Shown here one piece after another: positions 5,294 to 64,000 of a stretch of DNA of 64,000 nt. A program made the position numbers and the translations under genes. Each line of letters opens with the position of its first letter. The stretch's first letter is position 1. This DNA comes from a virus (taxonomy: Duplodnaviria; Caudoviricetes): positions 32,001 through 96,000 of the IMG/VR virus record IMGVR_UViG_3300021255_003058; one strand, given 5' to 3'. The notes beneath the pieces were generated by a model. The model was given only the letters and a program-made list of their open reading frames with translations, ran no database searches and was not told the origin of the DNA.

Positions 5294-6361
5294 TTATATT
5301 ATATCTAATATTCCATTTAATTTGTTACTTTTTGCTTGAATTTGACTTTCTGCTATTGATGTATCTTTGCATATTTTATAATCATGATATTTTTCAAAAA
5401 TATCTAAAATTTCTTGTGGATATGAATCTTTTTCTAATGCAACGAGCATTCTATTATATTTGAAATGCTTTATAATATCTGATTCTGATTTATTAATTCT
5501 TCCTATGTAATTTTTTGAATTAATAAGATTATGAATATATTTGTTTATTTCATTGTCATCATTATAGTTTAATGAATAATCAATATCTTTTGATGCAACT
5601 TTAAATAATCGTTCTGATTTTGTTTTTGACGTTCTTAATATTATTGGATATATATTATCTCCTTTATCTCCTCTTATAATTTTGTCAATAATAATATTAG
5701 ATGGATCAATTTTTGTTACTTCATTTGATTTATTAATTAAGTTATTTAATATGTCTTCATTAATATTAAATTCTGTATTAAACAAAAAATTAAATTCTTC
5801 TTCTGGAAAATCTTTTATAAATAATCCATTTTGAGAATTCCACCATGCTGTAAAACATTTATTAGAATCTATATTCACTAATTGCTTAAGATCATTATCT
5901 TTAGTCCAAATAATACAATTAGTGCCTTGTGAATTAAGATATGTTGACCAATGATAACACCAATCATCTCCTTCAACTCCTTGCTCTTGACATGCAGTAA
6001 TTCCATTACTTTGTAATGTCGTTATAAATTCATCATAAGAATTAAATAATAATTCCCAGTTTATATCTGATGATCTTACACGATTTCCCTTATATTCTAC
6101 TGATTGATCTTCTGATGTTTTTTCTTTATATAAAAAATCTGGTACTTCAATAGAATTTCTCCAAGAACCGCCATCAGCAACAAAAATAATATTATCAATA
6201 TCTACAAATGTACGAAGTACAACATTTATAGATTTAATAAGCATTAGTTTAAGTTCTTGATTTAATTCATATTCATCAATATAACGATTATTTAATACTG
6301 AAAGTCTACTCATCAAAAGCCAGTTTCCATCAACAATTAATGTTAATTTACTTTTAGGCAT
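5294..6361 (-). CDS. rnh: 5'-3' exonuclease / T4 RNase H-like (FEN/PIN family)
   Basis: Motifs LIVDGN, YKGNR, EGDD, TKDNDLKQL, RGDKGDNI. Confidence 0.9.
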   Translation of the reverse strand: MPKSKLTLIVDGNWLLMSRLSVLNNRYIDEYELNQELKLMLIKSINVVLRTFVDIDNIIFVADGGSWRNSIEVPDFLYKEKTSEDQSVEYKGNRVRSSDINWELLFNSYDEFITTLQSNGITACQEQGVEGDDWCYHWSTYLNSQGTNCIIWTKDNDLKQLVNIDSNKCFTAWWNSQNGLFIKDFPEEEFNFLFNTEFNINEDILNNLINKSNEVTKIDPSNIIIDKIIRGDKGDNIYPIILRTSKTKSERLFKVASKDIDYSLNYNDDNEINKYIHNLINSKNYIGRINKSESDIIKHFKYNRMLVALEKDSYPQEILDIFEKYHDYKICKDTSIAESQIQAKSNKLNGILDII

Positions 6362-18567: not shown

Positions 18568-20271
18568 ATGACTATACATAGTATACAAATAAAAGATTTT
18601 AAAAGTCTTTATGGCACTCATTATTTTGATTTTGATAAGATGAAAGGTCTTATTAAGTTATCTGGACCTATTGGATCTGGTAAAACATCAATTGGTGAAG
18701 CATTAATATGGGGACTTTATGGAAATGTAAAGGGACAAACTAATCCTGGATTAGTGGCATGGAACTGTAAAGCATGTGAAGTAGAAATCAATTTAACATC
18801 AAAAGATAAAGAAGTTCATATTGTAAGAAATATTCGTGAACCACTGATTGTTGAAATCAATGGAAAAACGTTATCTGCTTCAAACAAAAAAGATACACAA
18901 TCAATACTTGAAGAGGAAGTATTTGATATTCCTAAACTTGCAGTAACAAAAATGTGTATTATTTCATTTAATGCATTCAATAGTCTTGCTTCTATGGGTG
19001 TTGGTGAAACTAAACAATTTCTTGACGATATATTTGGATTTAAATTATTCTCTGAATATAATGATGAAGTTAAGATTGAAAGAAAAACACAAGAAAATGA
19101 AGCAATAAGATTACAGTCAGTATATGATGAAAATTTAGAACAAATTGAGCATCTTAAAGAAAAGCAGATATCACAAACAAAAGAGTTAACACAAACAATA
19201 GATGTTGAAGCTCTTAATAAAAGGAGAGCAGAATATATTGAGCAAGGTGTCGCTGAAAAGAAAAAGAAAGAAGGTTTTGAAAATAAAATCTTCACTGAAA
19301 AACAAGAAGTAGATACAAAGATTAAAGAATGCCAAGATAAGATGACTGAAACAAAGACATTAGGTCAGCAAGCAAAAAGTCATTATAATACATTTAAGAC
19401 TGGTATTTGTCCTACTTGTGGACAAAAAATTGATCAATCACATATTGATGAGTATAAACAAAAATATGATGATTATATTGAGATTTACAAAGAATGGGAT
19501 AAGAAGAAAAAAGAGTATGAATTAGATAAGATTAATATTGACAAGAAATATTATAATAGTATTGAAACTTGTAAGAACAATATGACAGATCTAAAGCAGA
19601 AGATTGTAAATATTGATGCCGAGCTTAAATCTTATAATGATTCAGTTCAATTATTGAATGATAATTATGATGTATTAATTAAAGAATTAGAAGATAAAAC
19701 TAAAAAAATCAAGGAACAACTTGATAAATGTGATTTAGAAATTGCTGAATGGAATGAAATGAATGAATTATTTAGTAAGACGTTACGTTATAATTTATTA
19801 GAAACATTGATACCTCATATTAATCGTTCAATACAATTTTTTATAAATAAACTTGAACAAAACTACAAGATTGAATATGATCAAGAATTTAAGGCTCATA
19901 TTTATGTTGATGGCTGGGATAAAGAAATTTCTTATAACAATTTAAGTACAGGACAGAGAAAATCTCTGGATCTTGCAATTATTTTTGGAATATTGCAAAA
20001 TATTATTGCTAATGTAGATCTTAATATATTATTTTTAGATGAATTATTTAGTAATATGGATGTTAATGCTAGAAACATTATGATATCTCTTTTACAAGAA
20101 AACATGGGTGACAATAAGACAATATTTATTATTAATCATGCAGAAATGGGAGACGATATGTTTAATCATAAAATACGAGTAAAACTTGAAAAGAAAAGAA
20201 TAATATCGGCTTCGCAGAAAAAAGGAGAAGATGTTGTAGTACAAGCTTCAAAATATGAACAAGAATTTTAA
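18568..20271 (+). CDS. Rad50/SbcC-like recombination ATPase (T4 gp46-like)
   Basis: Walker A GPIGSGKT, coiled coil with CPTC zinc hook, signature LSTGQ, Walker B LFLDE, IINH. Confidence 0.94.
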   Translation: MTIHSIQIKDFKSLYGTHYFDFDKMKGLIKLSGPIGSGKTSIGEALIWGLYGNVKGQTNPGLVAWNCKACEVEINLTSKDKEVHIVRNIREPLIVEINGKTLSASNKKDTQSILEEEVFDIPKLAVTKMCIISFNAFNSLASMGVGETKQFLDDIFGFKLFSEYNDEVKIERKTQENEAIRLQSVYDENLEQIEHLKEKQISQTKELTQTIDVEALNKRRAEYIEQGVAEKKKKEGFENKIFTEKQEVDTKIKECQDKMTETKTLGQQAKSHYNTFKTGICPTCGQKIDQSHIDEYKQKYDDYIEIYKEWDKKKKEYELDKINIDKKYYNSIETCKNNMTDLKQKIVNIDAELKSYNDSVQLLNDNYDVLIKELEDKTKKIKEQLDKCDLEIAEWNEMNELFSKTLRYNLLETLIPHINRSIQFFINKLEQNYKIEYDQEFKAHIYVDGWDKEISYNNLSTGQRKSLDLAIIFGILQNIIANVDLNILFLDELFSNMDVNARNIMISLLQENMGDNKTIFIINHAEMGDDMFNHKIRVKLEKKRIISASQKKGEDVVVQASKYEQEF

Positions 20272-30629: not shown

Positions 30630-32522
30630 TTAATATAAACGAAGTTCAATTCCCTTCTCACGGGCTTTTTTCATCTTACCAGTATTTGACTCGAGTGAAT
30701 TTGTAAATACAATTTGTACCTCCTTCCAAGAACCTGTCTGACGATACTCAGGGTGACAAGCAAGGAACTCACCCTTTGACTTATAATCATTAGGTTCACC
30801 TGTTAAAATAACAGGAATCTGATTTGAAGTAGTCTTCTTAATTGCTGCATGAACAACTTTGAAATCATCAACAGTCATTCCAATTTTGTTCAAAATTTCA
30901 TTAATCTCCTTACACTCATTTGAATTTTCATTCTTGACCCACTGATAACCTTCTGTTGCAAGGTGTTCAAAATCAGCATCTCCAGTAAGAATATAACTTG
31001 CACACTGCTCAGCAACCTTTGAACCACAAAGCTTGAATGAACAAGATTTGATAATATCAGTTAGAGTCAACTGTTTCAAAACTTCCTCAAAAGCTTTCTT
31101 TGCATTTGAACCATTCTTACCAGCTCCTGCGCCAAAATAAATCTCCTCAGGAGTACATTCCAAAATATTATATTTCAATGTTGGCTCAGCTTCATCGAAG
31201 AAATTAGCAGTTGTCGGATCTACAGAAGAAATATAATCAAAAATCTTCTTAGCAGTTTCACCTCCGATACTAGGAATATTCAAACTATTTGCTGAATAGA
31301 TAAACTTTAATTTTGCATGATCCTTTTCATTAAGTACAGCCATCAAATGAATATCATCAATAAGAGTTTCTCCTTCAGGCATTGGAATTTCTCCATCATT
31401 TGCTTGGGTAACTTTGTAAAGGAAAGGAATAATATCACCAGCAAGTGACATAATAACCTTTGAGCCAATTGTTACACCTTTTGACTTTAAATATCCATAA
31501 TTGTGACCAGAACATTTCTGAACATCTCGACCATCCATATTAACTGGATTAACCCAAATAATTGGAGTATATTCTCCAGTTTTTCCAAGATTCCATGTAA
31601 TGTTTACAACCTCAGTTTCCTCAAGCATTGGTACAAACTTAATTGCAACACAGTCAGATGGACGATGCTCAGTTGTATTATTAATTCGGAAATCTTCAGT
31701 TGGCTTAATAACGATGCCATCAAGAGCAAATGGGCAATTGTGACGGTACTCAGCAAATTCATTATAGATATTTGCAAAGTCATTTTCATTCAAGATATAA
31801 CGAGTCTTGAAGAATTGTGGAGTAACACCCGAATGATAATCAGCTTCAGACATCAGAACATTAAGTTTCGTCCACTCACGATCTTTAACAATACCTCCAC
31901 TGACTTGACGCCAATCATAAATAACAATTGACAAATCATTTCTCATTGCAAGATATTCAGGATCTTCTGAATAATCACGGTTCAGAACTCCTGATACAAA
32001 TGAACGAGGATTTGTAAACTGTTCAGCATATTTCTCTTCATAAATCTTTTTACTTACAAGAACCTCACCACGGAAAACGTTATGTCCTGTAAGTTTGATA
32101 AGTGACTCAGGAATAAAACGAACAAGAGGCAATGTTAAATCCTTACCAGTTTCACCATCACCACGAGATGAAATCTGAAGTAACTTGCCATCTTTGCACT
32201 CACATTCGAATGAACAACCGTCAAACTTAGGAGTTACAATAACTTCATGACGACCAAAATATTTAGCAGCCTCAGTAAAATATTTCTTCCAATCAATGTT
32301 GCCTTCCTTATCTTTATGAATTTGTACCTTTGAAAGTGAACCCATAATGAAAGGATGAACAATTGTATAAGAAGGATTATGACGAGCCCCGACCTGAGCC
32401 TTATTCTCAAGTCCGAGTTCCTTTTCAAGCGCATCAAACTCAAAGTCAGTCATAATTTCCTGACCATTATAGTAAGCTTCCTTTGCACGATAATAAAGCT
32501 CAAGTTTTTCTTTCTTTGTCAT
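30630..32522 (-). CDS. ligA: NAD-dependent DNA ligase
   Basis: AYY...TD.EFD domain Ia, MGSLSK, PKFDG adenylation motif, SRGDG, RGE, NPRS, DGIVIK, AIKF, OB-fold GDIIP, BRCT-like tail. Confidence 0.95.
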   Translation of the reverse strand: MTKKEKLELYYRAKEAYYNGQEIMTDFEFDALEKELGLENKAQVGARHNPSYTIVHPFIMGSLSKVQIHKDKEGNIDWKKYFTEAAKYFGRHEVIVTPKFDGCSFECECKDGKLLQISSRGDGETGKDLTLPLVRFIPESLIKLTGHNVFRGEVLVSKKIYEEKYAEQFTNPRSFVSGVLNRDYSEDPEYLAMRNDLSIVIYDWRQVSGGIVKDREWTKLNVLMSEADYHSGVTPQFFKTRYILNENDFANIYNEFAEYRHNCPFALDGIVIKPTEDFRINNTTEHRPSDCVAIKFVPMLEETEVVNITWNLGKTGEYTPIIWVNPVNMDGRDVQKCSGHNYGYLKSKGVTIGSKVIMSLAGDIIPFLYKVTQANDGEIPMPEGETLIDDIHLMAVLNEKDHAKLKFIYSANSLNIPSIGGETAKKIFDYISSVDPTTANFFDEAEPTLKYNILECTPEEIYFGAGAGKNGSNAKKAFEEVLKQLTLTDIIKSCSFKLCGSKVAEQCASYILTGDADFEHLATEGYQWVKNENSNECKEINEILNKIGMTVDDFKVVHAAIKKTTSNQIPVILTGEPNDYKSKGEFLACHPEYRQTGSWKEVQIVFTNSLESNTGKMKKAREKGIELRLY

Positions 32523-60385: not shown

Positions 60386-61597
60386 TTATCCTATTTGATT
60401 TTTAACATATTCTAAATCAACTGTTAACTCTTTAATATTTTGAGATGGTGCATCAAACATTGCTTTTGTCATTATATTTTCCATTGTTCCTCTAAGACCA
60501 CGAGCACCAAGTTTGTTTTCTATTGTCTTATCAACAATATAATCTAAAGCTTCATCAGTAAAATTAAGTTCAACATTGTCCAATTCAAATATTCTCTTAT
60601 ATTGTTTTATTAAAGCATTCTTTGGTTCTTTTAATATTTTCAATAATGCTTCCTTGTCTAATTCATCTGTATATGTTATGATTGGAAGACGTCCAATAAT
60701 TTCTGGTATCAAGCCAAATGCTTTTAAGTCAAGTGGAGTCAGTTTTGACATAAATTCTTCATCTTTTGTATTTCCTTCAACTTGTCTTTTTTCTACTGCA
60801 TTAAATCCTACTGTATGCTGATTGCATCTTTGCGCTATTTTTTTCTCAATACCAACAAATGCTCCACCACATATAAATAATATGTTCTTTGTATCAATTT
60901 TTACTAATGGTGTATCTGGATGTTTTCGGCCACCTTTTGGTGGAATTGACACAATTGAGCCTTCAAGCAACTTTAAAAGACCTTGTTGTACACCTTCACC
61001 ACTTACGTCTCTTGTGATTGATGCGTTATCTCCTTTACGAGCAATCTTATCTATTTCATCAATAAATACAATTCCGCGTTCAGTCTTTTCAACATCATAG
61101 TCTGCAGCTTGATAAAGATTAACCAACACAGATTCTACATCTTCTCCAACATAGCCTGCCTGAGTCAATACTGTAGCATCTGCTATTGTACATGGAACAT
61201 TAAGAAGCTTTGCAACAGTCTTTGCAATTAATGTATTATGTGATAATATATCATTTGTATAATATCTATGATTCGAATTTTCACTTAATTCAAAATCATA
61301 CATATTTTCATAATCATCAAATATAACAATATCAACTACTTTTTCAACGCCATTAATTGTTTGTATAAAATTAGGTTTATCTTTAACAAATACTTCATTC
61401 ATGTTTTCATCAAATACAATGTGAGTATCTGCACATTCTAACGTTAAACCTGATTCTGTTTCAATTTTATATTTATTATATGGAATTGTTTCGTTCAATG
61501 AAACAATATCTACCCACCCAGTATCTGTTTCTATTTCAAAATTTTCAATATTCCAAGTATTAATAAATTTTCTATTTACTTGTTCTGATTTATTCAT
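60386..61597 (-). CDS. clpX: IntC-ClpX(C): C-intein fused to the C-terminal part of the ClpX ATPase
   Basis: ...[10 protein letters not shown]|[41 protein letters not shown] loop, LGARGL. Confidence 0.95.
61235..61597 (-). mobile_element. Split intein, C-fragment (121 aa)
   Basis: Own ATG; block B-like ECADTH, block F YDFEL, block G SHN followed by Thr. Confidence 0.92.
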
Positions 61598-61613
61598 AAT
61601 TTAAATAAACATT

Positions 61614-62084
61614 TTAATCTTTGGTTGAACTGGTAATTAACATATTTTTTAAATTATTTATTGTATCATAATAGATTTCACCAGTTTTCTTATTACGGAC
61701 TTTTACTTTTGTATCACCAGATATGCATTTTCCTGTACCTGTTGGACCAACTATACATATATTAGATTTTTCAATTTCAACATCATTAACGATAGGAGTT
61801 GATATTCTCTTATAGTGATTATATACTGCAACAGCAACACGTTCTTTAACTCTATCTTGTCCAATAATATATTGGTCAAGGAACTCTTTTATTTCATGAG
61901 GCTTAGGAATTCCTGACATCAAATTCTTATTTACTTTCTCATTTTGCTCTTTTATTATATTATACGCATGATTTACACAATCTGAGCATATCCATCCAAA
62001 ATTTCCTTCCATTAATAATGGAACCATACTTTGTGGTCTTCCACAGCACATACAAATTTTTTCTTGGTTATTATTTTCTTCCAT
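61614..62084 (-). CDS. clpX: ClpX(N)-IntN: ClpX zinc-binding domain and Walker A fused to an N-intein (start reassigned to 62084)
   Basis: CMCC..CSDC zinc finger, P.EIKEFLDQYIIGQ, AVYNHYKR, EKSNI, GPTGTGK|CISGDT. Confidence 0.95.
   Translation of the reverse strand: MEENNNQEKICMCCGRPQSMVPLLMEGNFGWICSDCVNHAYNIIKEQNEKVNKNLMSGIPKPHEIKEFLDQYIIGQDRVKERVAVAVYNHYKRISTPIVNDVEIEKSNICIVGPTGTGKCISGDTKVKVRNKKTGEIYYDTINNLKNMLITSSTKD
61617..61727 (-). mobile_element. Split intein, N-fragment (37 aa)
   Basis: Block A CISGDTKVKV directly after the Walker A Lys, then a stop. Confidence 0.92.
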
Positions 62085-62138
62085 TGATTTATTATTTTTG
62101 AAATATAATATAATATAGTTTAAACACATTAAAATTTT

Positions 62139-63338: not shown

Positions 63339-64000
63339 TTAAAAACCTATTTTCTTATTTTGTTTCTTTGAAAAATCATTTTCATCTTCAATATTATATA
63401 TCTCTGCTAATGACATATCTTTATCGACATTATATCCTAATATATTTGTTGCTTTTTGTTTTGAAAGTTTTTTGAATTCATATTTTAATGAAAGCCTTCC
63501 TTTACGTAATAATGCATTATCAATTGTATTTAATGAAGTATTAAATGTGCATATTAATTTTATTCCTAAAACATCTGCTATTACTCCATCTGTAATATTT
63601 AATAATACTGGCATAACTGGATTATATCCTTGGTTTCTATCTTGTAATGCTTTCTCACAGTCTTCCAATATAAATACTGTATTTTGATTATCAAGAAAAT
63701 AAGACATCAATTTATCTTGAGCAGCATTTGCTAATATTGTACCATCCATAAATACAAATGATACTGTTTTAAATTTTGATATAAGATGTTTAATCAATGA
63801 TGTCTTACCTGTACCTGGTTCTCCATAGAAGAATAATAATTCTGCCTTGTCTTCAGATTCCATTAACTTACAAATTTTTTCATAAGGGAAGTCATCATTA
63901 TAATTCTTTTCGACATCAATTTTTTTATCTTCATAATCATACCAAGATGTATAAATATTATTTGATGCATCAATTGCTGCAATGCCAAATTCTATTTTGT
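63339..64000 (-). CDS. AAA+ ATPase, 5' end outside the window
   Basis: GEPGTGKT, ILEDCE, LLNITDG, TFN, LLRKGRL; frame is open to the window edge. Confidence 0.85.
   Translation of the reverse strand, partial: KIEFGIAAIDASNNIYTSWYDYEDKKIDVEKNYNDDFPYEKICKLMESEDKAELLFFYGEPGTGKTSLIKHLISKFKTVSFVFMDGTILANAAQDKLMSYFLDNQNTVFILEDCEKALQDRNQGYNPVMPVLLNITDGVIADVLGIKLICTFNTSLNTIDNALLRKGRLSLKYEFKKLSKQKATNILGYNVDKDMSLAEIYNIEDENDFSKKQNKKIGF

Follow-up and report, generated by a model that had tools for sequence, protein, structure and literature searches.

The stretch of DNA analysed here (the window) comprises 64,000 nt, positions 32,001 to 96,000 of the IMG/VR virus record IMGVR_UViG_3300021255_003058, a 116-kb contig of ~26% G+C that is estimated to be 44% complete. 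On its minus strand, two adjacent genes in different frames encode the two parts of a ClpX unfoldase, and the segments that face each other across the gap read as the two fragments of an intein: a short N-terminal fragment (IntN) that directly follows the Walker A motif and a long C-terminal fragment (IntC) that precedes the rest of ClpX (Table 1). The original prediction had described this anatomy (GPTGTGK and a 37-aa IntN, a 16-bp gap, a 121-aa IntC and TLIAK), and it proved exact to the base.

Both halves are ClpX. The N-half gene lies within an open reading frame (ORF) spanning 61614-62129, and its likely ATG at 62084 (MEENNN...) is the same start as in a closely related intein-less ClpX (P0270). 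The N-half protein matches the NCBIfam ClpX model PRK05342 over model positions 2-128 (E=5.7e-36); the C-half alone matches it as an equivalog with 425 bits (cut-off 359) over positions 121-401, and the Pfam matches for the two ClpX halves are zf-C4_ClpX, AAA_2 and ClpB_D2-small. The C-extein harbours the GYVG pore loop, Walker B, the RKH loop, a VGF (IGF-type) ClpP-docking loop and the sensor-2 motif GARGLR, and the ClpX Walker A motif is whole only once the halves are spliced.

Table 1. Features of the split clpX locus (numbering of the 64,000-nt window).
Feature	Coordinates	Strand	Description
N-half gene	61617-62084	-	Coding sequence, 156 aa: ClpX up to GPTGTGK, then 37-aa IntN (CISGDTKVKV...TSSTKD)
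N-extein	61728..62084	-	ClpX residues 1-119: zinc finger and N-terminal AAA+ part, Walker A GPTGTGK at its end
C4 zinc finger within N-extein	about 61947-62057	-	Pfam zf-C4_ClpX, E=3.8e-10
IntN, 37 aa	61617..61727	-	Putative catalytic Cys1 first (CISGDTKVKVRNKKTGEIYY...)
N-half stop codon TAA	61614..61616	-	Read from sequence
Intergenic scar (as read from alignment), 16 bp, AATGTTTATTTAAATT	61598..61613	-	Ends align with the endonuclease ORF of relatives L012/L014
C-half gene	60386-61597	-	403 aa, frame differs from N-half: 121-aa IntC, TLIAK, remaining ClpX
IntC, 121 aa	61235..61597	-	Block B (CADTH), block F, block G (ILSHN)
C-extein	60389..61234	-	ClpX from Thr+1 (TLIAK...) to its end
C-half stop codon	60386..60388	-	Read from sequence

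The residues expected of a class 1 intein of the Hedgehog/intein (HINT) fold, namely Cys1, the block B His, the block F Asp, the terminal His-Asn and Thr+1, all appear to be in place. Cys1 directly follows GPTGTGK and is invariant in all eight N-halves of relatives, while D57, H59, D101, H120 and N121 of IntC and Thr+1 (T122) are invariant in 14 ClpX relatives. Comparison with known inteins, as suggested at the outset, returned the gp41-1 intein (1e-4), VidaL (7.5e-3) and also CatC when IntC was searched against PDB sequences with phmmer, even if its identity to solved atypically split inteins is only 20-28%. The AlphaFold2 model of IntC has a predicted local distance difference test score (pLDDT) of 88.7, and in a Foldseek search of the PDB the listed matches are all inteins as far as rank 28, a few bacterial intein-like (BIL) domains following lower down; the best matches are VidaL (6vgv; E=5.5e-6, template modelling score 0.71, root-mean-square deviation (rmsd) 1.6) and Cat (6dsl; 1.1e-5). 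IntN searched alone against PDB sequences gave nothing meaningful, CatN being left unmatched; within its family, it is similar to the N part of contiguous members found in the phage terminase large subunit (TerL).

The two fragments are also predicted to associate. A modelled complex of IntC (residues 1-135) with the N-half (residues 106-156) reached an interaction prediction score from aligned errors (ipSAE) of 0.73 (best of three controls, 0.01), with a partner pLDDT of at least 67 and a contact agreement between runs of at least 67%; in calibration, the mark for such scores was reached by 58 of 80 solved complexes and by 2 of 110 mismatched pairs. In the predicted interface, Cys1 and its strand lie against block B (53-60), block F (97-102) and block G (119-122), and N-half residues 117-133 pack on IntC. 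Taken with the alignment to contiguous TerL members, these contacts would place the split at the site known as S2, after helix alpha-1. The net charges are +3 for IntN and -15 for IntC, exactly as counted by hand in the original prediction, against a contig background of -1.3 per 121 aa, and opposite charges are kept in relatives (+1 to +6 and -8 to -17, respectively).

We propose, with a probability of roughly 0.85, that this locus encodes a genuine, naturally and atypically split class 1 intein at the Walker A Lys-Thr bond of clpX in a Lak-like gut megaphage, and that its ClpX would be produced by trans-splicing. The two adjacent genes would be translated separately, after which the basic IntN and the acidic IntC would pair to form a HINT fold; the class 1 residues listed above, from Cys1 to Thr+1, would then carry out protein trans-splicing, releasing the intein and leaving a 401-aa ClpX with the P-loop GPTGTGKT. 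Neither half would be expected to bind ATP before this step. The core of the original prediction, an atypically split intein at the ClpX Walker A motif with an activity that should need trans-splicing, is thus supported by all of the computational tests, at the level of sequence analysis and models.

Several points weigh against this proposal. Splicing itself is known only by inference from sequence and models. Block B reads A-x-x-H (A-D-T-H) where the canonical motif is T-x-x-H, so that the His is kept and the Thr absent; VidaL also has an A-x-x-H block B in the PDB phmmer alignment. Pfam and NCBIfam scans of both half proteins called no intein family at the families' own thresholds, and PF14890 searched against the contig reached no better than E=0.2-0.5, at the locus described here. 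Likeness to solved split-intein complexes may account for part of the complex score. Finally, no ClpP gene occurs on the 116-kb fragment, and the ClpP partner is therefore assumed to be that of the host; because the record is a fragment (44% complete), the absence says little.

Is the split real? The two ORFs are only 16 bp apart, contiguous members of the same intein family occur in TerL, and Lak-type phages recode TAG, all of which would suit a clpX that is in fact unsplit, its two ORFs being read as one cis-splicing mini-intein through a sequencing error, a programmed frameshift or stop-codon recoding. We consider this highly improbable. The N-half ends with TAA, which is the dominant stop of the contig (it ends 66 of the 74 long ORFs), and recoding therefore does not join the frames; a second in-frame TAA sits two codons ahead of the C-half ATG. 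The identical 16-bp junction is found in independent assemblies (JGI 3300002641 and Logan SRR873452), and in a sister lineage a 23-bp junction is spanned in three independent assemblies, a fourth contig carrying the same sequence upstream of the C-half, so the junctions are no assembly artefact. Most relatives have a separate gene between the halves, which lie 1.2-1.4 kb from each other and must hence work in trans in these phages. Longer proteins with the IntN of the window, such as a contiguous ClpX intein would give, were searched for and none turned up, which is weak evidence. Metagenomes yielded 708 split C-halves, many of them on ~545-kb contigs, and the ClpX relatives of the window come from contigs 245-555 kb long and from Prevotella Lak phages, with an IntN of 32-40 aa and an IntC of 116-124 aa.

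The gene that separates the halves in relatives sheds light on the 16 bp. Nine relatives (L005-L007, L009, L012-L015 and L017) have an ORF between the halves, and in seven of these (L007, L009, L012-L015 and L017) it encodes a protein of 386-459 aa belonging to PHROG 22677, whose start overlaps the N-half stop and whose stop overlaps the C-half ATG. This protein has a long N-terminal region with 'GYTEEEAK' repeats. Its C-terminal 140 aa were modelled by AlphaFold2 with a mean pLDDT of 63 (71-87 over residues 61-140), and VIA-align matched the domain to Vsr (1cw0, Z 9.1, rmsd 3.3, 105 aligned; 1vsr, Z 7.8) and to I-Bth0305I (3r3p, Z 7.8, rmsd 3.2, 88 of 97 aligned), the next row standing at Z 5.6. 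A Foldseek search with the same model returned nothing significant, VIA-align alone singling out Vsr and I-Bth0305I, and the sequence had no match among PDB sequences. The intervening ORF is thus predicted from its model to be a Vsr-like (EDxHD) free-standing homing endonuclease. The Lak-A-like L005 (1836-3008) and L006, on contigs of 533-538 kb, carry a different and unrelated-looking intervening ORF of 390 aa, in which 'KYG..N' repeats occur and the C-terminus is PD-(D/E)xK-like (DFYLP...IEYQGTWTHG); six TAG codons must be translated as Gln for the frame to stay open, and the flanking ClpX halves are without TAG.

Among near-identical C-halves, the intervening DNA forms a series: the full 1.38 kb in L012, where the ORF lies at 1129-2505, 281 nt in L011, 23 nt in L023 and 16 nt in the window. 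The 281-nt 3' remnant of L011 still encodes the catalytic motif of the endonuclease, and the 16 nt of the window align as ~5 nt of the start plus ~11 nt of the end of the endonuclease ORF (1.38 kb) of L012/L014. As read from these alignments, the 16 bp is the scar of an endonuclease gene deletion. The original prediction, which saw no homing endonuclease inside or between the halves, therefore holds for the window allele (none was found there, nor elsewhere on the 116-kb contig) but not for its close relatives, in which a Vsr-like gene lies between the halves. In the gene-breaking model for the origin of split inteins, endonuclease loss is step III, as in locus gp41-7 (Dassa et al. 2009, PMC2677866). 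The window locus would correspond to this step, and would be a derivative of a fractured gene and not a fractured gene itself. Its history may be sketched as follows: a contiguous mini-intein of the phage TerL-type P-loop family would have been interrupted by a free-standing Vsr-like endonuclease gene, which made it a fractured gene, and a near-precise deletion of the endonuclease in the lineage of the window would have left the 16-bp scar and an endonuclease-less split intein, now kept only because the function of ClpX would depend on it.

Joined in silico at K119-T122 (C-half numbering for T), the exteins give a 401-aa ClpX with an intact P-loop GPTGTGKT, and this protein aligns with no gap at the junction to the intein-less ClpX of Lak-B2 (57% identity) and to Bacteroidales ClpX (59%). 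Its zinc finger, Walker A and B motifs, GYVG, RKH and VGF docking loops and sensor-2 are all intact. Natural intein-less clpX alleles exist with C-exteins 89-92% identical: P0275 has exactly the predicted junction (...GPTGTGKTLIAK...) and P0270 is also 401 aa long. Thus, the joining of K to T put forward in the original prediction does restore the P-loop, and the intein-less alleles that it proposed to look for in related phages do occur (P0270, P0275 and Lak-B2). P0270 and P0275 differ from each other exactly around the insertion site (NILICGVTGSGKT vs NICIVGPTGTGKT), which could be endonuclease target-site variation or a co-conversion tract. The closest cellular relative is the Bacteroidales-type ClpX of L003 and L004, at 59% over the whole spliced protein and 62-65% over the tblastn match of the C-extein, suggesting that the phage gene came from the host lineage. 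L003 and L004 are short GenBank records named 'Bacteriophage sp.' (MT840002 and MT839408) that resemble Bacteroidales chromosomal fragments, with a ClpP-like ORF (by sequence) directly before clpX, housekeeping-looking neighbours and a higher G+C.

The loss of the endonuclease raises the question of whether the broken clpX and its intein are a non-functional relic drifting to loss. The phage group can evidently do without the intein, as the intein-less alleles of close relatives attest, and ClpX is probably accessory in phages. Yet both reading frames are intact, the catalytic residues are invariant across relatives, no ClpX motif has been lost and the same allele was recovered from several samples. 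Moreover, the pairwise ratio of nonsynonymous to synonymous substitution rates (dN/dS, Nei-Gojobori) is 0.07-0.49 over N-extein, IntN, IntC and C-extein (0.10-0.49 for IntN), including between the two endonuclease-less lineages, and all four parts are therefore under purifying selection. Decay is, in our view, quite improbable.

The window intein is one of a large family: IntC, searched exhaustively with HMMER, recovered 758 cluster representatives at E<=1e-3 and 484 at the stricter E<=1e-10; most of them begin with IntC and are therefore also atypically split. Contiguous members occur in TerL and have an N part much like the IntN of the window. Among 149 representatives examined, the junction could be located in 97, where the residue after ...SHN is T (62), S (34) or C (1), and the terminal His and Asn are invariant in 95 representatives. 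The hosts, as scanned with Pfam in 95 representatives, are TerL (49), DnaB-like helicases (11) and AAA_2 proteins (6), with further ABC, AAA_5, SMC and clamp-loader ATPases; clustering of C-exteins, which separates ClpX-type from ClpA/B-like proteins as the AAA_2 tally of 6 does not, assigns 71 of 108 to TerL. Pfam Intein_splicing is reached at E<=1e-5 by 21 of the 95. One intein family thus occupies the Walker A Lys-Ser/Thr bond of many unrelated phage ATPases. Thr+1, which had been thought unusual, is instead the family norm together with Ser, because the family sits at the bond between GK and T/S of the P-loop. On the 116-kb contig, the PF14890 search found no second intein of this type.

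Compared with L023, the window has an intein that is 95-96% identical in DNA and a flanking clpX that is about 53-87% identical, with a synonymous divergence (dS) of ~0.15 in the intein and of 0.95-3.1 in the exteins. That the intein is far more alike than its flanks suggests recent horizontal spread between diverged clpX alleles, although the same pattern would result from strong local gene conversion. Resolution is poor in the intein tree (108 rows, 124 columns); the ClpX-hosted copies mostly cluster, nine of them in one clade with a Shimodaira-Hasegawa-like approximate likelihood ratio (SH-aLRT) support of 90, and the tree decides neither for a single origin nor on the number of host switches or the donor host.

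In at least two lineages the split has outlasted the endonuclease, and it might have been co-opted as a switch, kept to regulate ClpX through delayed or condition-dependent splicing, as a gate on its activity, or through a zinc-finger half acting alone; the original prediction had raised both a gate on when ClpX engages ClpP and a separately acting zinc-domain half. The N-half does hold a complete zinc-binding domain, which before ligation could be a decoy for host ClpX adaptors or substrates, and Cys1-dependent inteins can in principle be redox-sensitive. This idea seems unlikely to us: no regulation-specific feature was found at the locus, and the split would be expected to last in any case, since intein DNA is seldom removed precisely unless an intein-less template is available. 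In addition, TerL, DnaB and further hosts share the arrangement, which speaks for a selfish element and against a device specific to ClpX.

Atypically split inteins are valued for protein semisynthesis and, to our knowledge, only a handful of natural ones have been characterised (AceL-TerL, GOS-TerL, VidaL and PolB16). The window intein resembles AceL-TerL, GOS-TerL, Cat (6DSL) and VidaL (6VGV) in its short IntN and long IntC, its Cys1 and its C-terminal ...HRYYTNGILSHN, and its predicted split after the first helix (S2) is as described for the AceL and GOS TerL inteins. The assignment to the short-N/long-C class in the original prediction is thus borne out by the 37/121-aa layout and by best fold matches to VidaL and Cat, and TerL is the main host of the family. 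Unlike these inteins, the one described here, known from sequence, has the ClpX unfoldase as host, Thr at +1 and a lost intervening endonuclease gene. Natural atypical IntN fragments span 15-37 aa (PMC13014065); at 37 aa, the window IntN stands at the long end of this range and is therefore not the especially attractive labelling tag that it had been taken for.

The fractured genes of Dassa et al. 2009 combine a split intein and a free-standing Vsr-like or GIY-YIG homing endonuclease (PMC2677866). The relatives of the window match this layout, including the overlaps of endonuclease start and stop that PMC2677866 describes, and they have a Vsr/I-Bth0305I-like catalytic domain by prediction. The loci of that study lie in enzymes of DNA synthesis and repair and mostly have the canonical split site with a long IntN, whereas the host here is a protease-associated unfoldase and the endonuclease would have entered at the atypical S2 site. 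In cultured phages (Salmonella Maynard and Marshall, Campylobacter CP220 and CPt10, and several Vibrio phages), inteins of the same family, ~37-41% identical to the window IntC, lie in annotated terminase large-subunit genes, some records annotating the intein in the TerL precursor; there the host gene differs from clpX. Prevotella phage Lak-A2 (MK250019; L002 2575-4821) carries, at the Walker B motif of ClpX (VFLDE/CFDGN...VTGN/CDKIARK, slashes marking the junctions), a contiguous ~330-aa intein whose interior holds an insert of endonuclease size, with Cys at +1 in place of the usual Ile/Leu. Host protein and phage group are the same as in the window, but the insertion site differs and the layout is unrelated. 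ClpX of Lak phages is thus a recurrent intein target. Within the group, Lak-B2 (L001) has a ClpX without intein and the Lak-A-like L005 and L006 have the Walker A split intein. A literature search found no intein, split or not, in ClpX; its coverage was partial, so an earlier description is possible. A proteolysis chaperone as host, which the original prediction had called unusual, therefore appears unreported in the literature searched.

As for the surroundings of the locus, a small AAA ATPase gene (63339-63863, minus strand) lies just upstream of clpX. Other window genes encode an NAD-dependent DNA ligase (30630-32522, minus strand), an SbcC/SMC-like ATPase (18568-20271, plus strand) and a 5'-3' exonuclease (5294-6361, minus strand). 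ARAGORN found no transfer RNA genes in the window, and most of its large ORFs have no Pfam match.

The locus is real and probably functional, in a family already known from phage terminases and with no new mechanism. Its significance lies first in the host: ClpX is a new host protein outside DNA metabolism for atypically split inteins. The hundreds of natural variants of both fragments would be useful for consensus design or orthogonality screening. In addition, close phages provide an unusually complete series at one site, from the empty site through the split intein with its endonuclease to the remnant and the scar, which supports the published model of split-intein origin. Finally, the finding is a warning for annotation, as ClpX genes that look 'truncated' in gut megaphages are probably functional.

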